Assembly: GCA_030647555.1 (NCBI GenBank)
Contig: JAUSJG010000008.1
Coordinates: 193,467 to 257,466 of the forward strand
DNA: 64,000 nt
Source of the DNA: a bacterium
Lineage (GTDB): Bacteria; Patescibacteriota; Andersenbacteria; UBA10190; CAIZMI01
Direction of reading: 5' to 3'
The notes beneath the pieces are model-generated. The model saw only the letters and a list, made by a program, of their open reading frames with translations. It ran no database searches and was not told the DNA's origin. The position numbers and the translations under genes are program-made. This document shows, piece by piece, positions 4,661-63,997 of this stretch (positions are counted from its first letter, which is position 1; every line of letters starts with the position of its first letter).

Positions 4661-5806
4661 ATGAAGATTCTCCTGATTAACTATGAGTATCCTCCGCTGG
4701 GTGGCGGTGGGGGCATTGAGGCGCAAGATTTGGCGGAGCAACTGGCCAAAACGCATGAGGTGACAGTGTTAACTACCGGTTTTCATAATCTGCCACACAA
4801 AGAGACACGAAATGGAGTAAAAATTTATCGCGTGCCGGTTTTTGGACGCACTGATTTGCCGACCGCTTCTACGGTTTCGCTTGTTTCTTTTTTCCCGTTC
4901 GCGCTTGTGTATGGTTTGTTTTTAGTACCACGAATTAAACCAAATGTCATTAACGCCCATTTTGCGATTCCATCTGGATTACCAGCCGCATTTTTGGCAA
5001 AAATATATCGGATTCCTTTTGTGTTAACACTAATTGGTGGAGACATCTATGATCCCAGCAAGGGCATTTCACCGCATCGTCATGCAATTTTGCGTTGGAC
5101 GATTAGACGCATTATGCGTTGCGCGGATAAAATTACGGCCATTTCTCATGATACGAAAGAACGGGCGATTCGTTATTATCAGGCGCCGGAAGGCATTGAG
5201 GTGATTCCATTGGGGCTAGTTCCACCAAAGGATCTAGTTGCCGAAGCTAGTGTGAAGGAAGTGAGTGATAAAATAAACTTTGTTTCGATTGGTCGGTTGG
5301 TGGCAAGAAAGGGCTACTTTGACTTGTTTCGAGCTTTTGCTGAAATGGAGAAAAAGAACGCAGTTTTGCATATTATCGGCGATGGACCATTGTTGCCGGA
5401 ACTACGAACGGAGATTAAAAACCTCGGTGTCGAAGAAAGAATCGTGATGCATGGTCGCGCGACCGAGGAAGGAAAATATAATATATTAAAAATGTCGGAT
5501 ATATATGTATCGGCATCGCACCACGAAGGTTTTGGGATTTGTTTTCTTGAGGCGATGTATACCGGGTTACCGATTATTACAACCAACATCGGAGGACAAA
5601 CTGATTTTCTCGTTCCGGGACGAAACGCTATTCTTGTTAATGTCGGTGATATCAATAAGCTCACTAAGGCGATGGACCAGTTGGTAATGGATGCGGAGAT
5701 GAGAAAAAATATCGGTGAGGTGAACAAAAAGGATGTTGAAAATTTTTTGATAGAAAACACAACGAAACGTTATGAAATTATTTTTCAAGAATTAAACGCT
5801 CACTAA
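4661..5806 (+). CDS. Glycosyltransferase family 4
   Basis: N-terminal 'YPPLGGGGG' and C-terminal 'EGFGICFLEAMYTGLPIITTNIGGQTDFL' GT4 EX7E motif. Confidence 0.85.
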   Translation: MKILLINYEYPPLGGGGGIEAQDLAEQLAKTHEVTVLTTGFHNLPHKETRNGVKIYRVPVFGRTDLPTASTVSLVSFFPFALVYGLFLVPRIKPNVINAHFAIPSGLPAAFLAKIYRIPFVLTLIGGDIYDPSKGISPHRHAILRWTIRRIMRCADKITAISHDTKERAIRYYQAPEGIEVIPLGLVPPKDLVAEASVKEVSDKINFVSIGRLVARKGYFDLFRAFAEMEKKNAVLHIIGDGPLLPELRTEIKNLGVEERIVMHGRATEEGKYNILKMSDIYVSASHHEGFGICFLEAMYTGLPIITTNIGGQTDFLVPGRNAILVNVGDINKLTKAMDQLVMDAEMRKNIGEVNKKDVENFLIENTTKRYEIIFQELNAH

Positions 5807-5807
5807 A

Positions 5808-6917
5808 ATGGCTCGGATTGCCCTTGAGGCGCGTTCATTGTCGACACTCGGTGGTGGCGTGCGTACTTACACAAAAGAAGTAATTAGTAGGATTTTGAAG
5901 GCTGAATCAAGTGATGAATATATTATTTATCACGATAGCAAAAAGAATCTCAGCAGTTTTCCCGGTGCGGAAGAAAAAGTTGTTTCGGTAGGGCACCCAT
6001 TGTTTCGCATCGGTTGGGACTATTTTTTACTGCCACAGGCGTTGAAACGGGACAAGATTGATTTCATTCATTATTTTAAACCGGCGACTACGCCATTTAA
6101 AAAACCCGTCGCGATTGCGACAATGTACGATGTTATTCCTTTGCTTTATCCGGAAACGCAAACGGCAATTCAGTTGGCTTATTGGCGCAAACAGTTACCG
6201 CTTACGGCGAAAACCTGCGCGCATTTGATAACGATATCGGAATGTTCAAAACGCGACATTGTGAGACTGTTGCAGGTTGATCCGGCCAAGATAACAGTGA
6301 CGCCACTCGGGGTTGATTCCAAGTTTAAACCGGTGTCGGAGATCGAAAAAATAGCGATGCGCGAAAAATATCGCTTGCCTGAAAAATATATATTGTATCT
6401 TGGTACAATAGAACCGCGAAAAAATGTCGCGCGATTAATTCGAGCGTTTAATAAAGTGGCCGGTAATATTCCACACAGTTTAGTGTTGGCTGGAAAATGG
6501 GGCTGGAGTTATGAGGATGTAAAAGAGGAAATTGCCAAATCGCCATTTAAAGACAGAATCATTAGTTTGTCATATGTCGAGTCGGAGTATTTGCCGTCAC
6601 TTTGTAGCGCCGCCAGTATATTTGTTTTTCCAAGCTTATATGAAGGTTATGGCTTGCCGCCACTGGAGGCAATGGCATGCGGAACGCCGGTAATTACATC
6701 AAATGTTTCCAGTTTACCGGAAGTGGTAGGTGACGCCGCGTTGACTGTTGATCCTTTGGACGAAGATGCTTTAAGTAAAGCAATTGAACGATTGGCTTTG
6801 GATACTGCGTTACAAAACGAATTAAGTGAAAAAGGATTAGCAAGAGCAAAACAATTTAATTGGGACAAGACAGCAGAAATGACGTTGGGTGTATACAAGA
6901 AAGTATTTCAATTATGA
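5808..6917 (+). CDS. Glycosyltransferase family 4
   Basis: 'EGYGLPPLEAMACGTPVITSNVSSLPEVVGDAA' GT4 signature. Confidence 0.85.
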   Translation: MARIALEARSLSTLGGGVRTYTKEVISRILKAESSDEYIIYHDSKKNLSSFPGAEEKVVSVGHPLFRIGWDYFLLPQALKRDKIDFIHYFKPATTPFKKPVAIATMYDVIPLLYPETQTAIQLAYWRKQLPLTAKTCAHLITISECSKRDIVRLLQVDPAKITVTPLGVDSKFKPVSEIEKIAMREKYRLPEKYILYLGTIEPRKNVARLIRAFNKVAGNIPHSLVLAGKWGWSYEDVKEEIAKSPFKDRIISLSYVESEYLPSLCSAASIFVFPSLYEGYGLPPLEAMACGTPVITSNVSSLPEVVGDAALTVDPLDEDALSKAIERLALDTALQNELSEKGLARAKQFNWDKTAEMTLGVYKKVFQL

Positions 6918-8227
6918 AAATCGCTTTCCTTTCCTCGCGTTTTCCGCCTGATTTTATTGGTGGTGGGGAATGGTCGACAAAATATATTGCAGAAGGCCTG
7001 GTCGCACTTGGTCACGACGTGACTGTTATTTGTGGTGCGGAAGAAAATAAAGAGGAAATAATTAATGGCTTAAAAGTTAAACGCGTCAAAGCGTTGTTTG
7101 GTCTTTGGGACAAACCGCTTTTGGAAAAACGAAAAAGTAAAAAACTGGCGTTGGTTCTAAAGAAAGAGCTTGATGAAAAATTCGACATAGTTCACGCGCA
7201 TGATTTTCGCACCGCGCAAGCTTTAGCATTATTGAATTTGCCAAACGCGGTTGTAACAATTCGTGATTTCGCGCCAATCTGTGGGACAACTAATAATATG
7301 TTGTTTGACGGTCAATCTTGTAATGGTTGTACGTTGGCAAGTGTTTGTTTTAAGTGTCATCGTGTGCGCGAAGCGTCGTTTGCGCGGAAGCCGTTTAGAA
7401 TTTGGCAATACAAATTCAATTTGGCTTTTCGCAATGAAACATATCAAAATATTAAGAATCAAATTTATATCAGTGAGGCATTGCGTTCGCGCGTCGTATC
7501 ACGACTGGAATTGCCAAAAAATACGGCGGTCATTTCGAATCCAGTTAGTCCGGATTGGTTGCAACCGATCATGTCGCAATTCCCTCCTTTGTTAAATGGC
7601 GCGGCGGGTTCCCCGAAAACATCCAGTGAATGTTTGAGAGGGTGCCAGCGCCGGCACATCAGTGCCGTGCTGGGCGGGGGTGGATTCCGAAATAAAATTG
7701 TTTACGCTGGCACGGTTGATGACTACAAGGGAGTAAAAATTTTAATCGATGCGTTCGCAAAGTTTCAGAAAATAGAAAAAGATGTTGAGTTGATAATTAT
7801 TGGTAAGGGCAAAATCGCAGAATATCAAAAATACATCGCGCAAAATTGTATCGATATATCGATACAATTTGTCGGTAAAAAAACACAAGAAGAAGTGAGA
7901 GAATATTTTGACGAGGCGTTGGTAATTGTACAGCCGAGTATTTGGGAAGAGCCGTTTGGCAGAACGATTATCGAAGCCTACGCGCGCGGTCGCGCCGTTG
8001 TGGCGTCTAATGTTGGCGGAATTAAAGAAACGTTCAAAGAAGGCACCGGTTATTTGGTAAAACCCGGGAGTGTTGATGAATTGCATTTAGCTCTTAAAAA
8101 GATTGTGGAAAACAAAGAAGAAACCCAAAAAATGGGCGAAATCGGCAGAGCATATGTAGAACAAAATTTTACCGCGCAAATTGTTGCGCAGAAATATTTG
8201 GATTATTATAATCATGCGACCAAATAG
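6914..8227 (+). CDS. Glycosyltransferase family 4 carrying a Cys-rich insertion and an in-frame repeat element
   Basis: Start taken at the ATG overlapping the upstream TGA (ATGA) rather than the ORF-track 6860. 'FPPDFIGGGEW' N-terminus and 'EEPFGRTIIEAYARGRAVVASNVGGIKE' C-terminus. The C-X12-C-X2-C-X5-C-X2-C segment lies at 7281-7370 and the repeat at 7579-7692. Confidence 0.8.
   Translation: MKIAFLSSRFPPDFIGGGEWSTKYIAEGLVALGHDVTVICGAEENKEEIINGLKVKRVKALFGLWDKPLLEKRKSKKLALVLKKELDEKFDIVHAHDFRTAQALALLNLPNAVVTIRDFAPICGTTNNMLFDGQSCNGCTLASVCFKCHRVREASFARKPFRIWQYKFNLAFRNETYQNIKNQIYISEALRSRVVSRLELPKNTAVISNPVSPDWLQPIMSQFPPLLNGAAGSPKTSSECLRGCQRRHISAVLGGGGFRNKIVYAGTVDDYKGVKILIDAFAKFQKIEKDVELIIIGKGKIAEYQKYIAQNCIDISIQFVGKKTQEEVREYFDEALVIVQPSIWEEPFGRTIIEAYARGRAVVASNVGGIKETFKEGTGYLVKPGSVDELHLALKKIVENKEETQKMGEIGRAYVEQNFTAQIVAQKYLDYYNHATK
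7579..7692. repeat. Composite hairpin repeat family A/B, copy 1 (left end plus A core), in-frame inside the GT4 CDS
   Basis: Near-identical to 27530-27645, including ...GAGGGTGCCAGCGCCGGCACATCAGTGCCGTGCYGGGCGGGGGTGGATTC. It is 114 bp, i.e. 38 codons. Confidence 0.8.
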
Positions 8228-10048: not shown

Positions 10049-10119
10049 AGGATAATTAGTGAAATGATAGTTGAAATTGTTCTTTATTACCAGGGCTTTT
10101 TTGGGTAAAAATTATTCAT

Positions 10120-10246
10120 AAAATCCCAATGACCAAATCTCAAATCCCAACAAAACTCTAAAACCTTAAATGACCAAAACTTTAGTTTTTGGGATTTAGG
10201 TAATTATGATTTTGTTGGACATTGGGGTTTGGTCATTGGGATTTAA
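10120..10246. repeat. Intergenic imperfect palindrome, family D, copy 1
   Basis: Left arm AAATCCCAATGACCAAATCTCAAATCCCAACAAAAC. Right arm GATTTTGTTGGACATTGGGGTTTGGTCATTGGGATTT. Confidence 0.8.
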
Positions 10247-10318
10247 AAATATTGTAAATTTTGATTGAAATTATAGTGCTTCAGTGCTACATTGAGCCAA
10301 CTAACAACTACTCTATAA

Positions 10319-13496: not shown

Positions 13497-13627
13497 GAAT
13501 TTTCAATTATCAATGACCAATTTTCAATCAATTATTAAATGGCTTAATTATCAAATAACGACGCCCCCATTGATAATTTAAGAATTGATCATTAATTGAT
13601 AATTGGTCATTGATAATTGAAAATTAG
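13497..13627. repeat. Intergenic palindromic element, family E, copy 1
   Basis: Perfect 25-bp inverted repeat AATTTTCAATTATCAATGACCAATT ... AATTGGTCATTGATAATTGAAAATT flanking a spacer of about 70 bp. Confidence 0.85.
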
Positions 13628-16313: not shown

Positions 16314-16334
16314 TTTTGCCTATGCAAAATTATT

Positions 16335-16488
16335 AAATCCCAATATCCAAACCCCAAATCCCAACAAAATCCCAATTATTTAAATCTCAAACCCCATGTT
16401 TGGTCATTTGTGGAATTAGGGTTTTGTTGGACATTGCCTGCCGGCCATAGCTTTAGCGACGGCTGGGTCATTAGGTTTTGGGATTTTT
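16335..16488. repeat. Intergenic imperfect palindrome, family D, copy 2
   Basis: Arms AAATCCCAATATCCAAACCCCAAATCCCAACAAAATCCC ... GGTCATTAGGTTTTGGGATTTTT, with an internal GTTTTGTTGGACATTG shared with copy 1. Confidence 0.8.
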
Positions 16489-19407: not shown

Positions 19408-19445
19408 TTGTATATAGTATTTGGTATATAGTATATGGATTTAGT
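19408..19445. repeat. Short repeat H (TGTATATAGTATATGGATTTA), copy 1
   Basis: Matches 51787-51808. It is inverted at 51891-51918. Confidence 0.6.
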
Positions 19446-19493
19446 GGGCAATAATTTCGCTAGAATTTTTACGAATAGAAGTAGTTAAACATA

Positions 19494-22914: not shown

Positions 22915-22971
22915 TTGGTTATTCGGTATTCTGTTTAGTAATTGGTGGGCGTGTTTGGCTAGAAAGCTTTT

Positions 22972-23096
22972 AAACCCCAAATCCTAAACACCAATGTCCA
23001 ACAAAATCCTAATTATTTAAATCACAAAAAATACGTTTTAGTCATTAGGTTTTTTTGATTTTTGTTGGGATTTGGTCATTGGGATTTGGGTTTTTA
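22972..23096. repeat. Intergenic imperfect palindrome, family D, copy 3
   Basis: AAACCCCAAATCCTAAACACCAATGTCCAACAAAATCC ... TTTTTGTTGGGATTTGGTCATTGGGATTTGGG. Confidence 0.8.
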
Positions 23097-23137
23097 TATT
23101 GCTTGGTTTCTCGTTATGAGTCTGTTAATGTGTCATT

Positions 23138-27529: not shown

Positions 27530-27720
27530 CATTCCCTCCTTTATCAAATGGCGCGGCGGATGCCCCGAGAACATCCGGTGGATGTTCGAGAGGGTGCCAG
27601 CGCCGGCACATCAGTGCCGTGCCGGGCGGGGGTGGATTCTGAAAAGAATTCGTAATAATTACTTAATCCCTCCCATCCTCCCTTTGGTAAAGGGAGGAGA
27701 CGCGGTGATTTCGCAGAATT
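27530..27720. repeat. Full-length composite hairpin repeat (A core plus B hairpin arm), intergenic copy
   Basis: TTCCCTCCTTT...GTGCCAGCGCCGGCAC...GGGGTGGATTC...TTAATCCCTCCCATCCTCCCTTTGGTAAAGGGAGGAGACG. It is partly shared with 7579-7692 and 48121-48242. Confidence 0.8.
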
Positions 27721-30303: not shown

Positions 30304-30337
30304 AGGATCAGACGGTTAAACTGATTCCCGCCCTTCA

Positions 30338-30364
30338 GGGCGAGGCTCGCCCAGATGGGCGGCC
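30338..30364. repeat. 25-nt GC-rich repeat G, intergenic copy
   Basis: GGGCGAGGCTCGCCCAGATGGGCGGCC, nested inside CCCGCCC...GGGCGG. Confidence 0.8.
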
Positions 30365-30451
30365 TGCTTGATACAGGAATGACACGGCGGGAGATTTAGT
30401 TCTTAGTACCGGGTTGCGGCGGTAACCACTAATTTCGTTTCTTGTGGTAAA

Positions 30452-34745: not shown

Positions 34746-36323
34746 ATGCTCCAAAAAGAAGTTCTTGATATTCTTAAGACCGGTGCCTCGGTTTTTTTGA
34801 CCGGTGAACCCGGTAGTGGGAAGACACACGTTATTCGCGAATATATCAGATATTTGCGTTCCGTGAAAATTGATGTCGCGGTTACCGCTTCTACTGGAAT
34901 TGCGGCGACGCACCTTGGTGGCGTGACGATTAATTCTTGGAGCGGGATTGGGATTAAGAAAATTCTTTCGAAATATGATCTCGATTACATCGCGAGTAAT
35001 GAGTATTTGGTAAAAAGAATTACTAAAACGAAGGTGCTCATTATTGATGAGGTATCGATGTTGGATGGTAGTACATTGGATAGTATTGAACGTGTTTGTC
35101 GCGCCATCAAACAGTCGGAGTTGCCTTTTGGCGGGATGCAAACTGTTTTGGTTGGTGATTTTTTTCAACTTCCGCCCGTGGCCAGACAGGGCGAACCGCC
35201 GGCCAAATTCGCGTTTGATTGCGCCGCTTGGTTTAAGGGGAAATTTTTGGTCTGTTATTTGCATGAGCAGTTTCGGCAAAGTGATCAAGATTTTTTAAAT
35301 GTTTTATCGGCCGTGCGAAAAAACGCGGTAACAGATGAACATTTAGCGCATTTGGATAAGCGATGTGTGGAACTGGATTTTAGCGGTGCGACGCCCGCCC
35401 CGGGAGGCGAGGCTCGCCCTGATGGGCGGCAATTAACACGGTTATATTCACATAATTTGGATGTTGATAATGTTAATAATGAGGCGCTAAAGAAAATTCC
35501 CGGCGAGGCAAAGATATTTAAAATGGAAACAACCGGACGCAGAATATTGGTTGATCAAATTAAACGCGGTTGCTTATCGCCGGAAACTTTAGTGTTAAAA
35601 AAGGACGCAGTGGTGATGTTTACCAAAAATAGCCCCAAAGGATTGTTTGTTAACGGTACTTTGGGTCGTGTGGTGGAATTTAATTCATTTAGCGGAATGC
35701 CGGTGGTAAAAACAAAAGACGGCAGAAAGATTGAAACCGAAAAAATGGATTGGGCGATTGATGACAACGGGCGCGTGTTGGCGCGGGTCAGTCAAATTCC
35801 ATTGCGTCTGGCATGGGCTTTAACTGTTCATAAGAGTCAGGGGATGTCGCTGGACGTGGCGTTTATCGACTTGAGAACCGCTTTTGTGGCCGGTCAGGGT
35901 TATGTGGCATTATCGCGCGTGCGAACATTGCAGGGTTTGTTTTTGTGCGGGTATAACAAACAGGCTTTATTGGTGCATCCGGAAGTTTTAGTGAAAGATG
36001 TGGATTTTCGGGCGCAATCGGAAGCCCTGTCGCAAGAGTTTTCTAAATTATCGGCAGAGGAACTGGAAAAGATGCATCGGAATTATATTCAAGGAATGGG
36101 CGGTGTTTTGAAAACTAGCGGGGAAAGTGAAAAAAAATATTCCTTGGAAATAATTCGCGAAAAATTTAAAAATGCGTACGCCAAATGGACGGAGGAAGAT
36201 GACAAATTATTGGCGGAATTATTTGGCCAGGGCAGGGGATATAAGGATATGGCCAATCACTTTGGTCGTAAAACCGGCGCGATTACGGCGCGTTTAAAGA
36301 AACTAAAGCTGATTGAGGAATAA
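34746..36323 (+). CDS. SF1B RecD/Pif1-family DNA helicase with a C-terminal HTH-like tail
   Basis: 'LTGEPGSGKTH', 'LIIDEVSMLD' and 'VHKSQGMSLD'. Contains repeat G in-frame at 35406-35430. Confidence 0.75.
   Translation: MLQKEVLDILKTGASVFLTGEPGSGKTHVIREYIRYLRSVKIDVAVTASTGIAATHLGGVTINSWSGIGIKKILSKYDLDYIASNEYLVKRITKTKVLIIDEVSMLDGSTLDSIERVCRAIKQSELPFGGMQTVLVGDFFQLPPVARQGEPPAKFAFDCAAWFKGKFLVCYLHEQFRQSDQDFLNVLSAVRKNAVTDEHLAHLDKRCVELDFSGATPAPGGEARPDGRQLTRLYSHNLDVDNVNNEALKKIPGEAKIFKMETTGRRILVDQIKRGCLSPETLVLKKDAVVMFTKNSPKGLFVNGTLGRVVEFNSFSGMPVVKTKDGRKIETEKMDWAIDDNGRVLARVSQIPLRLAWALTVHKSQGMSLDVAFIDLRTAFVAGQGYVALSRVRTLQGLFLCGYNKQALLVHPEVLVKDVDFRAQSEALSQEFSKLSAEELEKMHRNYIQGMGGVLKTSGESEKKYSLEIIREKFKNAYAKWTEEDDKLLAELFGQGRGYKDMANHFGRKTGAITARLKKLKLIEE
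35406..35430. repeat. 25-nt GC-rich repeat G, in-frame copy inside the helicase CDS
   Basis: GGCGAGGCTCGCCCTGATGGGCGGC. It encodes ...GGEARPDGRQ... Confidence 0.8.
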
Positions 36324-43895: not shown

Positions 43896-45133
43896 TTGCT
43901 ATTTCCCTCGCTCCAAATTTTGAAACAAAGGACGCTTTATTGGCACTGAAACAGCTGTTTTTGCCATGGCGTTGGCGTAAAGGTACTGCCAATCAAAGAT
44001 TGGTCGCTAAATTACAAGCAATACTTGGCAGGAAGGAAATTTATACGGTTAATAGCGCGCGTTGGGGACTATATTTATTGCTTCAGAATTTGCGTCTTGA
44101 GAAAGATACGGAAGTTTTATTGCAGGCGTTTACTTGCGTCTCCGTTCCAGGCCCGGTGCTCTGGAATAATTTGAAACCGGTTTACGTTGATATTCTGGAA
44201 AGAGAATTAACAATGGATCCTCTTGATCTGGAGCGAAAAATTACAGCTAAAAGTCGGGTAATTATTGTTCAACACACTTTTGGCATACCGGCTCGGATGG
44301 ACGAAATAATGACGATTGCCAAGAAACACAACTTAATTGTGATCGAGGATTGCGCACATACGCTTGGAGGGAAACATCGCGATAAGCTTTTGGGCACGAT
44401 TGGTGACGCCTCAATTTTTAGTTTTGGTCGCGACAAAGCAATCTCAAGTGTTTTTGGTGGTGCAATTATGGTTAATAATCAAAAAGTGTTTACTAGTATT
44501 AAGTCTGCTGTGGCAGAATTGCCATTGAGTAAAAACGGGTGGGTTCTCCAGCAACTGATGCATCCGATTTTGTTTGAGTTGATTATTAAGCCATTATATT
44601 TCACGGCGCAGATCGGAAAGATAAAATTAGTCTTCGCTCAGAAGGTCGGTCTGCTTTCTAAAGCCATCGCGTCACATGAAAAGTCTGGCGGTAAGCCCGC
44701 TTTTGAATGCGCAAAATTATCAAACGCGTTGGCGGAACTGGCCTGTTTTCAATTAAGCCGGTTAGAGGCATTTAACGCGCGTCGTCGCGAAATCGTTGAA
44801 ATATACAACAAGGAATTACACCAATCTGGTTTTGATGGACAGAGTTTATTGCGTTATCCGATTTTTGTTGATGAACCGCGAAAATTGTTATTAGCGGCTC
44901 GCAAAGAAAAGATTTTGCTAGGGGACTGGTATGAAGTGATTGCGCCAAAAGACACGGATCTAAAGGCCGTACAATATGTCGCGGGTTCTTGTCCAGTGGC
45001 GGAATCGGTCGCTAAGAGAGAGATAAATTTACCGACCTACTACACGCTAAAAAACAGTGACCTAAAGAAAATCGTGGAGTTTACTTTAAGGACTGTCCCT
45101 AAAGTAAACGGCTACTTTAGGGACAGTCCTTAA
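43892..45133 (+). CDS. DegT/DnrJ/EryC1/ArnB-family PLP-dependent sugar aminotransferase
   Basis: 'DASIFSFGRDKAISSVFGGAI' (PLP Lys region) and 'IIVQHTFGIPARMDEI'. Confidence 0.7.
   Translation: MIAISLAPNFETKDALLALKQLFLPWRWRKGTANQRLVAKLQAILGRKEIYTVNSARWGLYLLLQNLRLEKDTEVLLQAFTCVSVPGPVLWNNLKPVYVDILERELTMDPLDLERKITAKSRVIIVQHTFGIPARMDEIMTIAKKHNLIVIEDCAHTLGGKHRDKLLGTIGDASIFSFGRDKAISSVFGGAIMVNNQKVFTSIKSAVAELPLSKNGWVLQQLMHPILFELIIKPLYFTAQIGKIKLVFAQKVGLLSKAIASHEKSGGKPAFECAKLSNALAELACFQLSRLEAFNARRREIVEIYNKELHQSGFDGQSLLRYPIFVDEPRKLLLAARKEKILLGDWYEVIAPKDTDLKAVQYVAGSCPVAESVAKREINLPTYYTLKNSDLKKIVEFTLRTVPKVNGYFRDSP
45090..45129 (+). other. Perfect 17-bp stem hairpin within the last 14 codons of the aminotransferase CDS
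   Basis: GGACTGTCCCTAAAGTA-AACGGC-TACTTTAGGGACAGTCC. Confidence 0.6.
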
Positions 45134-45145
45134 AGTGTTAAACCT

Positions 45146-46539: not shown

Positions 46540-48249
46540 TTAAGGGTTACCCTTAAAGTACTTTCTCACCACGATATCTCCTTGATATCCAAACAGTTCC
46601 GAAAAACTTTTTTCCGATTCTAGTTTATATTCATCCGATACTGATAGTTTTGAACCTCCGAAACCGGTTGTGTCCACCGCCCAAATTACATCCGGTTTTT
46701 CTTGAAATATTTCGGGGCCGACAATATCATCTTTTGTTAGAATCGGTCCGCCACTGAAATGGGAAAGTTCGCCTGTTTCAGAATATAAACGCGGTGGCGT
46801 AATCTCCCCTTGCCCCGCTCTGATGAGCGAGGCTCGCCCAGATGGGCGGCCCTCTTTATTAAAGAAGGGAACGCTTGAGTGAAACAAGACCGAAAAATAG
46901 ACAAAACTGGAACTAACAAGGATTGGTTCGTTTTGATTGGCATTTTGTCGGAGATATTGTACGGCCGTGACTGTTCCGGGGTGATCTTGAAAATGCAGTG
47001 ATGTCCAGAATTGATTGACTGTATAAAAGCCATATCCGGCTATTATTAGCGCCACAACGGAACTAATATAAAACTTTTTTGGTAATAACGAAATACTGCG
47101 GGCAAGCAAGATAATTAATGGAATAGACGCAAAAACAAAGTAGCGGTCTTGGTAGATACTTGTTCCGCGTGATAGATACCACGCGCCAAGAAATGGAATA
47201 ATGAATGATGAAACAAGAAGCCAGTCGCCTTTTTTTCGACCAAATAATAGAGGAATAATTAATAATAAGGCAACCAAGACGGTGCAAATTATTGCGGTTT
47301 GATGAGAGAAATCACTTACTCCACCCAAGAGAAGGCGGGACATTGTGTTTGGAATCGACCAATCGTTCATCGGCGGAATCCAGTAGCTTTGTTGGACTTG
47401 GGCACGCTGTTTCAGGAAAGTTGTAAGCCAGGGCAGAAAAATGAGAACGGATAAAATCATACCGGATACTAATGACCATGTGTTGGCACTGCGAAGAGTC
47501 ACTAATGGTTTTTTAACAAGACGCAATATTAAATATCCGCCGATAAAAATAAAAATTCCCACGATGCTAAACAGGGCAAAGTAGTGGACATGAAATAACG
47601 CACCGATCAAAAGTCCTAAAATGATTCCGTCTCGCCAAATTTTTTTCGTCTCGGTTTGTTGTGCCGTCTTAATCATATATACCAACGCAAAACAGAGAAT
47701 TAGCGTACCGAGAGTGTACATTCTGGTTTCCCATGCGTATTGCACTTGAAAGGCGGAGACAGACGTTAAAAGGGCGCCAATAATCCCAACGCGTCTTGAG
47801 TTGAATAAAACTTTACCAGAAAAATAAACACCAAGGACTGTGGCGAAGGAAAGCAGTACGGAAAGAAGACGCAACCAAAATAAACTCACGTCTATTCCAA
47901 GTATGTGGAGAGGCGCGTTCCATAACCAAAGAATTAAGTAATAAAGAATCGGATGCACATCAGCGGCGGCGCGCTGTAAAAATTCCAGAAATGGGAATTG
48001 GATGAGACGCCACGAAAAGGCTTCGTCAAACCAAAGGGAACGGTCGGTGAGATGGGTAAGGCGGATAAGGAATGCAGACAGAAGAATGATGAACAGCGTG
48101 AAAGTAGTTATCAAGTTGTGCGCGTCGCGTTTCCCTCCCTTATTCAAGGGAGGGAGAGGGTGGGTTAGGAATGGGATCGCGCAAAACTTTCTTAATCCCT
48201 CCCAACCTCCCTTTGGTAAAGGGAGGAGACGACGCGACACCATTTTCAC
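46540..48249 (-). CDS. GT-C glycosyltransferase, ArnT/PMT-like, with a repeat-encoded N-terminus and a soluble C-terminal domain
   Basis: 'LWFDEAFSWRL' DE motif after TM1. GTG start. Residues about 3-43 are encoded by the composite repeat. Repeat G lies in-frame at 46825-46851. Confidence 0.6.
   Translation of the reverse strand: MKMVSRRLLPLPKGGWEGLRKFCAIPFLTHPLPPLNKGGKRDAHNLITTFTLFIILLSAFLIRLTHLTDRSLWFDEAFSWRLIQFPFLEFLQRAAADVHPILYYLILWLWNAPLHILGIDVSLFWLRLLSVLLSFATVLGVYFSGKVLFNSRRVGIIGALLTSVSAFQVQYAWETRMYTLGTLILCFALVYMIKTAQQTETKKIWRDGIILGLLIGALFHVHYFALFSIVGIFIFIGGYLILRLVKKPLVTLRSANTWSLVSGMILSVLIFLPWLTTFLKQRAQVQQSYWIPPMNDWSIPNTMSRLLLGGVSDFSHQTAIICTVLVALLLIIPLLFGRKKGDWLLVSSFIIPFLGAWYLSRGTSIYQDRYFVFASIPLIILLARSISLLPKKFYISSVVALIIAGYGFYTVNQFWTSLHFQDHPGTVTAVQYLRQNANQNEPILVSSSFVYFSVLFHSSVPFFNKEGRPSGRASLIRAGQGEITPPRLYSETGELSHFSGGPILTKDDIVGPEIFQEKPDVIWAVDTTGFGGSKLSVSDEYKLESEKSFSELFGYQGDIVVRKYFKGNP
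46825..46851. repeat. 25-nt GC-rich repeat G, in-frame copy inside the GT-C CDS
   Basis: GAGCGAGGCTCGCCCAGATGGGCGGCC. On the minus strand it encodes ...EGRPSGRASLIRAG... Confidence 0.8.
48121..48242. repeat. Composite hairpin repeat, short variant with terminal inverted repeats
   Basis: CGCGTCGCGTTTCCCTCCCTTATTCAAGGGAGGG...CTTAATCCCTCCCAACCTCCCTTTGGTAAAGGGAGGAGACGACGCGAC. Confidence 0.8.
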
Positions 48250-51772: not shown

Positions 51773-51918
51773 ATGTATATGGTATTTTGTATATAGTATA
51801 TGGATTTATTGACCGAAGACATGAAACGAAATATTTTAAAAAAACTTTTATTGGTGCGGAATACTTGACGACAGATTCGCCTTCTAAATCAATATACTAC
51901 ATACCATATACAAAATAC
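51773..51918. repeat. Inverted pair of H repeats flanking about 80 bp upstream of dnaX
   Basis: CAATGTATATGGTATTTTGTATATAGTATATGG and its inverted partner AATATACTACATACCATATACAAAATAC. Confidence 0.6.
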
Positions 51919-58983: not shown

Positions 58984-59115
58984 AAAATTTTCAATTATCA
59001 ATTTTACAATTTTCAATTAATTTTCAAAATTATAATTATCAAACGATGGCGGTTTTTTGAAAATTTGGTCATTTAGAAATTAATTGAAAATTGGCCATTG
59101 ATAATTGATAATTAA
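58984..59115. repeat. Intergenic palindromic element, family E, copy 2
   Basis: AAATTTTCAATTATCAATTTTACAATTTTCAATTAATTTTC ... GAAAATTGGCCATTGATAATTGATAATT, plus an internal TTTGGTCATTT. Confidence 0.75.
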
Positions 59116-62069: not shown

Positions 62070-62150
62070 AAAATGGGAACAAAAAGTGGGGAGCCGCCAT
62101 ACCCCTCTTTTTTTAAAGAGGGGCGAGGGGAGATTCCGTCGTCATTCGTA

Positions 62151-62192: not shown

Positions 62193-62239
62193 TAAAAAAA
62201 CGGAAGGGTGGAATTCAAAATGAGAGAGTCCGGTACTTC

Positions 62240-62268
62240 TTGCAAACAAAACACGAACGATTTATAAT
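62240..62268 (+). promoter_or_regulatory. Near-consensus σ70-type promoter TTGCAA-17-TATAAT upstream of the DinD-like gene
   Basis: TTGCAAacaaaacacgaacgattTATAAT. Duplicated at 63252-63280. Confidence 0.6.
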
Positions 62269-62297
62269 AATGATGTAAAACAATTAATTTAATAAAT

Positions 62298-63134
62298 ATG
62301 AATATTGAAATAACAACACAAATAGCGTTATTCAGAGGTGAAAAAATTAGAAGGACGCTTCATCAAAACGAATGGTGGTTTTCAGTGGTGGACGCGTGCG
62401 GAGTTCTTACAGACAGTAAAGATGCTGGGGCATATTGGCGAAAACTCAAGCAGAGATTAATTGAAGAGGGAAGCGAGGTCGTGACATTTTGTCACGGACT
62501 GAAATTGGAAGCCACAGACGGTAAAAAATACGAAACCGATTGTGCTACAACTGAAGGTCTCTTTCGTATCGCGCAGTCCATCCCATTCTCCAAAGCCGAG
62601 CCTTTTAAGCGCTGGTTGGCCAAGGTGGGGTATGAACGCGTGCAAGAAATTGAAAATCCCGAACTGGCCACAAAAAGAACACGCGTTCTTTACAAACTCA
62701 AAGGATACTCGGATAATTGGATTGAAAAAAGAATGCGTGGTATCGCTATTCGGGAAGAATTGACCGATGAGTGGCTAAAACGGGGAGCACAGGAAGAAAG
62801 AGATTATGCAATTCTTACCGCGGAAATATCCAAAGTGGCTTTTGGTGTTACGCCCAACGAATACAAAAAACTTAAAGGTTTGAAACGGGAAAATCTGCGT
62901 GATCATATGGATGATTTTGAGCTAATTTTTACAATGCTGGGAGAACGATCTACCACGGAAATCCATCGCACTGAAAATTCGAAAGGTGTTCCAAAACTGC
63001 GTAGTGACGCAAAAGCCGGAGGCGAAATTGCCGGTGGCGCAAGAAAAAAACTAGAAGATCGTCTTGGTCGTTCGGTGGTTACGAAAAATAACTTTTTCCA
63101 AAAACCGGCGGATAAAATGGACTTGAAAAAATAG
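62298..63134 (+). CDS. dinD: DinD-like DNA-damage-inducible protein (Bro-N domain)
   Basis: Bro-N-like 'NEWWFSVVDACGVLT' and a DinD-like 'FGVTPNEYKKLKGLKRENLRDHMDDFELIF' segment. Confidence 0.65.
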   Translation: MNIEITTQIALFRGEKIRRTLHQNEWWFSVVDACGVLTDSKDAGAYWRKLKQRLIEEGSEVVTFCHGLKLEATDGKKYETDCATTEGLFRIAQSIPFSKAEPFKRWLAKVGYERVQEIENPELATKRTRVLYKLKGYSDNWIEKRMRGIAIREELTDEWLKRGAQEERDYAILTAEISKVAFGVTPNEYKKLKGLKRENLRDHMDDFELIFTMLGERSTTEIHRTENSKGVPKLRSDAKAGGEIAGGARKKLEDRLGRSVVTKNNFFQKPADKMDLKK

Positions 63135-63168
63135 GATGAACGAATAATTGTTGTTGTTGCGTAGTAAA

Positions 63169-63215
63169 AGGGTCCGTCCTTGCCGTACAAGGTCGGACTC
63201 TGATTGGCGTGCGTC
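63169..63215 (+). repeat. GGTCGGAC hairpin repeat (family C), copy 3
   Basis: GGGTCCGTCCTTGCCGTACAAGGTCGGACTCTGATTGGCG. Confidence 0.6.
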
Positions 63216-63251
63216 GCTCACCCTCCCCAAAAAAACGTCCACAACTCGCTC

Positions 63252-63280
63252 TTGCAAACAATACACGAACGTCATATAAT
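63252..63280 (+). promoter_or_regulatory. Second copy of the TTGCAA-17-TATAAT promoter module
   Basis: TTGCAAacaatacacgaacgtcaTATAAT. The ATG lies 5 nt downstream, so the mRNA may be leaderless. Confidence 0.6.
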
Positions 63281-63284
63281 AATT

Positions 63285-63560
63285 ATGAAAGCGAAGGGGG
63301 AAAGCAATATATTATTAATTCAATTAGTATATGAAATACAAAAAAATAAAATTGTTCCGAATAACAGTTATACGGAATTTTTGCTTTATACCACTCCGAA
63401 CGGCAAGGTAAAAGTTGAAATATTTTTACGAAATGAAGATATCTGGCTGACTCAAGCAAAAATCACTGAACTTTTTGGCGTTGAAAGAAGTGTTGTTACA
63501 AAGCACCTGCAAAATATTTATTTAGACAAGGAGCTCAAAAAGGAAGCAACAAGTCAATAA
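63285..63560 (+). pseudogene. RhuM-family N-terminal fragment (truncated)
   Basis: 'LYTTPNGKVKVEIFLRNEDIWLTQAKITELFGVERSVVTKHLQNIY' matches the RhuM N-terminus. It stops after about 91 aa, whereas the family is about 330 aa. Confidence 0.5.
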
Positions 63561-63632
63561 TTGCACAGGTTAAAATGAGGGAGAAAAATAATAATGAATT
63601 TAAAAAATATCGGGTTTGAAATTAAATAAAAT

Positions 63633-63971
63633 ATGTATATTTTTTTAGACGAAAGCGGACAGTTCATAAAACACAATGACGATGATTATTTTGTTGTAGC
63701 ATCTTTTACTGTTGATGATCCGCGGCGAACGCAAAAAAGATTTAAAACCTGGCAGAAAACAAGGTTCCCCAAAAGAATGCGCAATCAGGCGGAAATAAAA
63801 TATTCTGCGGTAGATATTTCCGAATTACTGCGTTTGAGGACGCTAAAGTTTATTTCTAGACTTGATGTGCGAATAAATTATACATTCCTGAAGAGAAAAA
63901 ATATTCCTGACAATTTTGTTAAGAAAAACAAAAATAAATTATACATTCCTGAAGAGAAAAAATATTCCTGA
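63633..63971 (+). pseudogene. DUF3800-family gene, frameshifted by a 61-bp tandem duplication
   Basis: 'MYIFLDESGQF' DUF3800 N-terminal hallmark. The duplication at 63876-63997 shifts the frame to a premature TGA. Confidence 0.5.
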
Positions 63972-63997
63972 CAATTTTGTTAAGAAAAACAAAACTC
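63876..63997 (+). repeat. Perfect 61-bp tandem duplication (2 copies)
   Basis: AAATTATACATTCCTGAAGAGAAAAAATATTCCTGACAATTTTGTTAAGAAAAACAAAA repeated head-to-tail. Confidence 0.85.

Follow-up and report, generated by a model that had tools for sequence, protein, structure and literature searches.

The GC-rich motif that occurs three times in the window (the whole 64-kb stretch of DNA analysed here) is probably, at odds that we put at about three in four, the conserved core of a very small, GC-rich, non-coding double-hairpin insertion element that is mobilized in trans and measures 33 to 39 nt across its copies and 36 nt here. Comparison with uninterrupted sites shows that all three window copies are clean, lineage-specific insertions made after the split from the nearest sequenced relatives, and the element behaves like one of the smallest selfish insertion elements known. 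Selfish hairpin DNA as such is familiar; what makes this case of interest is the size, the in-frame spread in essential genes, the nesting in other micro-elements and a core common to distant uncultured lineages.

Extent and folding of the repeat

Exact matches to the 24-mer GCGAGGCTCGCCCWGATGGGCGGC lie at 30340-30363, 35407-35430 and 46827-46850, all on the + strand of the 64-kb window, against an expected count of 0.00 in 100 dinucleotide-preserving shuffles. The original prediction, that a 25-mer is present three times and is very unlikely to recur by chance, is borne out on both points. A fourth match with three mismatches, on the - strand at 30327-30350, is the left arm of copy 1 itself. 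With a repeat finder, the unit grows leftwards to 36-37 nt (30327-30363, 35394-35430 and 46814-46850; 84-86% identity), and the true unit is 36 nt, CCCGCYC-N4-RRGCGAG-G-CTCGCCC-WGAT-GGGCGG, of which the left arm and center can also be written as the pattern CCCGCC-N3-6-GCGAGGCTCGCC. Its termini, CCCGCC...GGGCGG, are inverted repeats. An outer stem CCCGCCC...GGGCGG had been described for the intergenic copy; it belongs to the element in all three. GC content is 72-83% in the element and 42.9% in the window. Each window copy is a singleton, at distances of 5 kb and 11 kb from the next, and the other contigs that carry the core have one copy each, with no regularly spaced, CRISPR-like array. The copies, their host genes and the repeats that they interrupt are as follows.

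30323..30385, + strand: host hairpin repeat cut by copy 1 (GATT, 36 nt, CCTGCTTGATACAGGAATGACAC)
30327..30362, + strand: copy 1, CCCGCCCTTCAGGGCGAGGCTCGCCCAGATGGGCGG, between the DUF2779 gene and mreC, with an exact core match
34746..36323, + strand: Pif1-family helicase gene, host of copy 2 (Pfam PF05970 PIF1, E = 2.9e-35)
35394..35429, + strand: copy 2, CCCGCCCCGGGAGGCGAGGCTCGCCCTGATGGGCGG, in frame, encoding PAPGGEARPDGR (residues 217-228)
46540..48249, - strand: GT39-like membrane glycosyltransferase gene, host of copy 3 (NCBI name of the identical protein, 'glycosyltransferase family 39 protein')
46798..46873, + strand: host repeat cut by copy 3 (CGTAATCTCCCCTTGC, 36 nt, CCCTCTTTATTAAAGAAGGGAACG)
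46814..46849, + strand: copy 3, CCCGCTCTGATGAGCGAGGCTCGCCCAGATGGGCGG, in frame in the GT39-like gene, which is read from the other strand; encodes GRPSGRASLIRA
62100..62142, - strand: intact paralogue of the copy-3 host repeat, serving as the 'empty site' reference (repeat finder and alignment)

The element consists of two similar 5-bp hairpins, CC-[CGCCC-N4-GGGCG]-AGGCT-[CGCCC-NGAT-GGGCG]-G. The pair of mini-hairpins originally drawn, GGCGAG..CTCGCC and GCCCA..TGGGC, has bases common to both and cannot form in full. Because each hairpin is itself a palindrome, one long fold is also possible, so that the two-hairpin structure ([CGCCC-N4-GGGCG] plus [CGCCC-NGAT-GGGCG]) competes with one long imperfect hairpin held by the pairings CCGCCC:GGGCGG and GGGCGAG:CTCGCCC. 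The long hairpin is the preferred fold of copy 1, at -16.1 kcal/mol (z = -4.5), and the two-hairpin fold that of copies 2 and 3; over 31 copies, the predicted minimum-energy fold is split 18 to 13.

Eight sites vary among the three window copies, seven of them in the left hairpin (loop and closing pairs); the sole variable site on the right is the loop base N, which takes all four values across loci. That the right half is so constant from locus to locus is in part a matter of construction, as the collection scans demanded an exact core; only the additional window copies and, at other loci, a few second copies escape this exact-match bias. Left-hairpin changes are compensated in three contexts, copy 3 among the carriers (CGCCC..GGGCG versus CGCTC..GAGCG), as are the stem changes between the orthologous dnaG copies of L029 and L035 (CCCGTC..GGCGGG versus CCCACC..GGTGGG), and hairpin formation therefore seems to matter. 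The left arm of copy 1 is also found in L012 and the CGCTC..GAGCG arm of copy 3 in L014 and L015. Since these left-arm variants recur in other organisms, the three window copies probably derive from different circulating variants and not from decay in place.

Filled and empty sites of the three copies

The window holds two mreB genes, mreC, PBP2, secA, secDF, several aminoacyl-tRNA synthetase genes, FemAB and PMT_2-type glycosyltransferases, and its GC skew is strong and uniform. The nearest named homologues are from Candidatus Andersenbacteria and other Patescibacteria. Approximately 55 kb of syntenic DNA from relatives contains no copy of the element, which makes the three insertions specific to the source lineage. 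Each of the three filled/empty comparisons gives an addition of 36 nt with the same boundaries and a target duplication of at most one base, a C.

Copy 1 interrupts a hairpin repeat (GATT/CCTGCTTGATACAGGAATGACA) that is restored when the 36 nt are taken out. The family to which this host repeat belongs, GATTCCTG-N7-9-CAGGAATGACA, is intact in the relatives L044, L004, L047 and L048, the last two having three intact repeats each. In L047, L048 and L049, the orthologous DUF2779-mreC spacer is without the copy, and the net gain in the window is 36 nt. An intrinsic terminator after the DUF2779 gene was ruled out, as no T-run lies 3' of copy 1.

The original prediction correctly placed the other two copies in frame within genes, as ...ATPAPGGEARPDGRQ... 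in the helicase and ...EGRPSGRASLIRAG... on the minus strand in the GT39-like open reading frame (ORF). For copy 2, exactly the 12 residues PAPGGEARPDGR are absent in all ten of the closest Pif1 homologues (89-59% identity), and the question of whether orthologues lack the extra residues can be answered more broadly, the insert being absent in 100 of 103 helicase homologues. The nearest relative DNA (L041 and L042) is an empty site (GCGAC-A/CAATT, against GCGAC-G/36 nt/CAATT in the window), so that the net insert is 36 nt and any target duplication is limited to a single C. The helicase gene is identical in an independent Logan assembly (L043). In an AlphaFold model (mean pLDDT 88.7), the insert is the lowest-confidence surface coil, lying between a helix (197-204) and a strand (232-234) with well-modeled structure on both sides.

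In the GT39-like protein, copy 3 falls in a variable loop that holds other hairpin micro-elements in relatives. When its flanks are joined, they align over the junction with the uninterrupted paralogue at 62100-62142. A Pfam search of the window protein itself gave no match; its homologues carry PF13231 PMT_2. A hammerhead-like reading of copy 3 (CTGATGAGCGAG) was rejected, as no GAAA core follows it and Rfam returned nothing.

Three close relatives each have their own, different element in this loop. L045 has the GC-rich hairpin micro-element CCCCCTTTACCAAGGGGGGATTAAGGGGGAT there, in frame and encoding PFTKGGLRGI, and L044 has an unrelated one, CATTCCTGCGCAAGCAGGCATC, in frame and encoding SFLRKQAS. 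A further GC-rich hairpin micro-element, GATTCCCGCCTTCGCGGGAATGACA, is in frame in the ValRS gene of L004 near position 7018 and encodes DSRLRGNDK. The hairpin repeat CCCTCCCAWCCTCCCTTTGGTAAAGGGAGGAGACG occurs at 27651-27702 and 48180-48231, and the same family is present in a relative's DUF2779-mreC spacer (L049, about 1420-1460). Its copy at 48180-48231 falls inside the annotated N-terminus of the GT39-like ORF (..LPLPKGGWEG..), a stretch absent from homologues, so that the annotated start is probably too far upstream.

Two of the three window insertions (copies 1 and 3) lie inside other hairpin repeats, and nesting of this kind is frequent. A general preference for hairpin targets is nevertheless unsupported: joined flanks had a median percentile of 0.33, and 6 of 29 fell no higher than 0.10. 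No motif is common to the 5' flanks of approximately 30 copies, nor is there a conserved target tetranucleotide of the IS200/IS605 type. In 32 of 33 copies, the element is followed on its 3' side by a C. With respect to GC skew, orientation shows a weak trend (17 versus 7, p = 0.06), confounded by coding-frame selection. Differences among copies follow no A-specific or other directional mutation pattern.

Several other repeats were observed in the window. A second GC-rich repeat of about 115-123 nt is present at 7579-7701 and 27531-27653 (89% identical). Its first copy is in frame in a GT4 glycosyltransferase gene (6860-8227), at approximately residues 240-280 between two Pfam domains (..SQFPPLLNGAAGSPKTSSECLRGCQRRHISAVLGGGGFRN..), and looks like an RPE-sized in-frame insertion; the second directly follows the ProRS gene, in an intergenic region. 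Two families of palindromic, AT-rich repeats, about 110-140 nt long, occupy intergenic regions between housekeeping genes (10110-10254, 16325-16436 and 22963-23098, also 13498-13625 and 59052-59113). With motifs such as AAATCCCAA, TTGGGATTT and AATTGGTCATTGATAATTGA, they resemble MITE-like elements or regulatory cassettes shared between genes. A 38-nt repeat, TGTATATRGTATTTKGTATATAGTATATGGATTTAKTG, is found in two intergenic regions (19409-19446 and 51774-51811; 92% identical). A perfect 24-nt inverted repeat with a 6-nt spacer (45083-45136; ACTTTAAGGACTGTCCCTAAAGTA / TACTTTAGGGACAGTCCTTAAAGT) spans the stop of a DegT-like gene just before the FemAB gene. The region 62238-63993 is a possible small mobile or phage-derived patch. 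Its Bro-N domain gene (62298-63134) strongly matches phrog_15286; in addition, a 41-nt repeat precedes each of two neighboring genes (62238 and 63250), and 61 nt are perfectly duplicated in tandem at 63872-63993.

Distribution beyond the window

The exact 23-nt core is present in seven GTDB representative genomes, with one exact copy in each. As labeled in the databases, the contigs of these metagenome-assembled genomes belong to Saccharibacteria, Sungiibacteriota, Andersenbacteria, two members of a 'Patescibacteria group' and two short Planctomycetota-binned contigs that may be mis-binned. Thirty metagenome contigs of 39-60% GC, from several projects and several assemblers, also carry the exact core. 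Together, the two collections give about 33 distinct contexts with unrelated flanks on Patescibacteria-type contigs. The lengths of 31 copies are 33 nt (10 copies), 34 nt (7), 36 nt (9) and 37-39 nt (5).

At least 10 of these approximately 31 copies, or roughly a third, are in frame inside Pfam-supported genes, in loops or between domains. Their hosts are genes for ValRS (between the catalytic and anticodon domains), DnaK (the C-terminal tail), DnaG (just after Toprim), ArgRS, UDG, a class-V aminotransferase, UPF0182 and a metallophosphoesterase. Both strands and four frames are represented, with GEARPDGR, RPSGRAS, QARLAPMGG and PPIRASLA as the encoded peptides. The 10 genic copies all measure 33, 36 or 39 nt, whereas every copy of 34, 37 or 38 nt is intergenic (Fisher p = 0.015). 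This restriction to multiples of three within genes points to real insertions filtered by selection and argues against an assembly artifact.

No true copy was found in 2.9 million viral contigs (IMG/VR), in cultured phages or in plasmids, and therefore no vector for horizontal spread was identified in these collections. Three viral-contig matches were dismissed as chance (contigs of 65-72% GC, without the CNGAT loop), and those in cultured phages and plasmids were only partial and in high-GC organisms. A fragment of a conserved RNA (rRNA, RNase P, tmRNA or similar) was likewise rejected, with no Rfam alignment above noise: Rfam identified only a tRNA in the window, and its best match on the element scored 13.7 bits against a threshold of 40. 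In our literature search, no paper matched the motif string and no account of such elements in Patescibacteria was found.

Some of these loci have features of their own. In L014/L038 and L018/L028, the element lies between GTAG-tagged REP-like hairpins, GTAGGGGCGGACCTCTGCGTCCGCCC and GGGAGCACACAGAGGTGCTCCCCTAC, so classical tagged REPs coexist with it in some organisms. The element-bearing DnaG of L035 (dnaG, 4882-7899) has an insert of approximately 440 amino acids between the zinc ribbon and the catalytic core; starting with C and ending in ..VVGNC, it looks like a putative intein. In L019 (1589-1705 and 2428-2545) and L032, the element is part of an intergenic cassette of approximately 115 nt, composed of a terminator-like hairpin with a T-run, the element and CTTCAGGCTCTAG...TATAAAAAGTGGAACTCGATTGTGGAGG. 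The cassette separates small ORFs without a Pfam or PHROG match on contigs of 50% GC, which may represent an unrecognized mobile genome carrying the element. The paired L019 copies were considered as the ends of a small insertion sequence and rejected: the 838-nt interval contains a 146-amino-acid ORF without a Pfam or PHROG match, and both copies lie in the repeated 115-nt cassette.

Mode of spread and comparison with known systems

As the element has no coding capacity, it would have to be copied in trans. In such a scheme, the right hairpin would be the sequence-specific recognition part, while the left would need only to be a hairpin, its loop free to vary. The near-identical core across distant lineages would then mean that a pool of variants is still being copied and spread horizontally, rather than inherited vertically from long ago. 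The most plausible known type of enzyme is a hairpin-recognizing single-strand DNA transposase of the HUH/Y1 type, such as the TnpA of IS200/IS605 or a RAYT, a suggestion that we regard as speculative. No transposase, insertion sequence, HUH/Y1, RAYT, IS200/IS605, TnpB, IscB or reverse transcriptase gene was found among the approximately 53 ORFs in the window, and the four ORFs around the paired L019 copies, out of approximately 320 kb of motif-bearing loci, have no transposase match. The IS200, TnpB or IscB gene with matching ends that the original prediction had in mind was thus not found in either place. Also against a mobile element is the small number of exact copies per genome (one per GTDB representative), unlike the bursts of REPs or MITEs.

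The few copies per genome, the missing target duplication and the lack of a nearby transposase would suit insertion without a transposase, either as cDNA reverse-transcribed from a small structured RNA or through templated patch repair or gene conversion that carries the hairpin of another copy into breaks. The variable left loop could then mean error-prone or incomplete copying, and several copies lie in or beside other hairpins, where stalled replication and DNA breaks are likely. We nonetheless consider this route unlikely: the window encodes no reverse transcriptase, the copies lack a directional mutation pattern, the joined flanks are not generally hairpin-prone (the median percentile of 0.33 and 6 of 29 given above), and gene conversion needs flanking homology, of which there is none. 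Read as a footprint or solo terminal hairpin, as in the original idea, the motif would be the remnant of a larger parent element, and hairpins without target duplication are indeed what the ends of IS200/IS605-like elements look like. IS200/IS605 excision is precise, however, and leaves no footprint. The whole insert is only 36 nt, with the same ends in three events, no 5' target tetranucleotide is conserved, and the L019 copies belong to a repeated 115-nt cassette beside four ORFs without a transposase match, so that this origin is very improbable.

An alternative hypothesis is that the repeat is a functional cis element under selection, whether as a protein-binding or recognition site (the other option raised originally), as an RNA stability or termination hairpin, or through the coded peptide GEARPDGR. 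The invariant 23-nt core, some compensatory stem change and the stable fold would agree with such a role. Presence or absence at orthologous sites largely refutes it, however, as does the inconsistent position relative to genes, with intergenic and genic copies on both strands and in four frames and no single conserved peptide; with neither a T-run terminator after copy 1 nor an Rfam family, we give it very little credence. An identical 23-mer in many unrelated assemblies might also be a chimeric or synthetic oligonucleotide joined into contigs, but such an artifact is scarcely conceivable when frames stay open through the element, genic lengths are always multiples of three, the left half varies between copies (compensated pairs included), several projects and assemblers contribute, and a second assembly reproduces the helicase copy exactly. 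The part of the original prediction that stands is the mobile element itself, with residues absent in orthologues, an empty site in a relative and many copies elsewhere; the combination on which it would have foundered, no further copies and conserved residues, is not what the search for further copies returned.

A bolder version of the insertion-element reading, which we advance only tentatively, is that an active, horizontally circulating family of approximately 36-nt double-hairpin elements exists in Patescibacteria, served by an enzyme outside the REP/RAYT, IS200/IS605 and MITE systems. If so, it would be the smallest bacterial mobile element with a defined recognition core conserved across classes, and would continually supply reduced genomes with new protein loops, including in-frame additions to essential genes. 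The streamlined genomes of Patescibacteria have few classical transposons. They are still invaded by hairpin micro-elements, with at least three further families in the window and its relatives, and these reach essential genes such as those for aminoacyl-tRNA synthetases, DnaK, DnaG and helicases. For annotation, the inserts are a source of spurious low-complexity peptides, make proteins look more divergent than they are and lengthen ORFs into intergenic repeats. For ecology, variants common to co-occurring lineages could mark DNA exchange among uncultured groundwater bacteria. The clean filled and empty sites and the invariant 23-nt core provide a good handle for finding the mechanism.

Among known systems, REPs and REPINs are dispersed, non-coding, GC-rich imperfect palindromes of 20-40 nt, sometimes genic, with two inverted hairpin units (PMC3733652, PMC3116915), and one end of a REP carries an unpaired tag, GTAG or CGTC (PMC3733652). 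The element resembles them as a small, GC-rich, non-coding palindrome of two hairpin units able to fold into a larger one, repeated three times in 64 kb. Unlike REPs, it has no GTAG/CGTC tag, such tags lying beside only 6 of 31 copies in mixed orientation, consistent with chance. Approximately one-third of its copies are genic, with one exact copy per GTDB representative, whereas REPs are mostly extragenic and number hundreds per genome; its core is common to distant lineages, whereas REP families are mostly species- or genus-specific; and no RAYT was found among the approximately 53 window ORFs. With MITEs it shares terminal inverted repeats, differing in its lack of a 2-10 bp target duplication and in being too small. 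IS200/IS605 ends and PATEs have hairpins at both ends, no target duplication and a single-strand biology (PMC6006769). However, those elements exceed 100 nt, are cleaved at a distance of 10-19 nt from the feet of their hairpins and insert on the 3' side of a fixed tetra- or pentanucleotide, whereas the element ends 1-2 nt from its hairpins and has no fixed target.

RPEs, which are mentioned in PMC1779305, offer a likeness of another kind, as the element too is inserted in frame in protein genes and absent from orthologues. RPEs are about 100-150 nt long and not known outside Rickettsia, whereas the element is 33-39 nt long, unrelated in sequence and found in Patescibacteria. Ogata et al. reportedly described RPEs in 2000 as palindromic selfish DNA that enters housekeeping genes in frame and adds a short peptide, which surface loops tolerate. 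The SDRs of Nostocales, reportedly the subject of work by Elhai et al. in 2008, are said to be hairpin mobile repeats of about 21-27 nt, nested in other repeats and occasionally genic; they are not known to have a transposase. Set against that description, the element is likewise very small, hairpin-forming, nested in other repeats and occasionally genic, but differs in sequence, in host group and in being a double hairpin. The GC clusters of yeast and the double-hairpin elements of Allomyces are GC-rich units of 30-60 nt that invade compact, AT-rich mitochondrial genomes, including coding and rRNA genes. To our knowledge, the mechanism has not been established for any of these analogous elements, whether SDRs or mitochondrial GC clusters. 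Repetitive hairpin-forming elements in sponge mitochondria are also GC-rich hairpin or double-hairpin units (PMC2800124). The element shares with mitochondrial GC clusters its GC-rich hairpin units and related sequences common to several species, but it is bacterial and not organellar, so that the likeness is one of analogy and not homology. The element works like REPs/REPINs, RPEs, SDRs and mitochondrial GC-cluster elements, and is itself neither a REP, a MITE, an RPE, an IS200/IS605 end, a CRISPR nor a member of an Rfam family.
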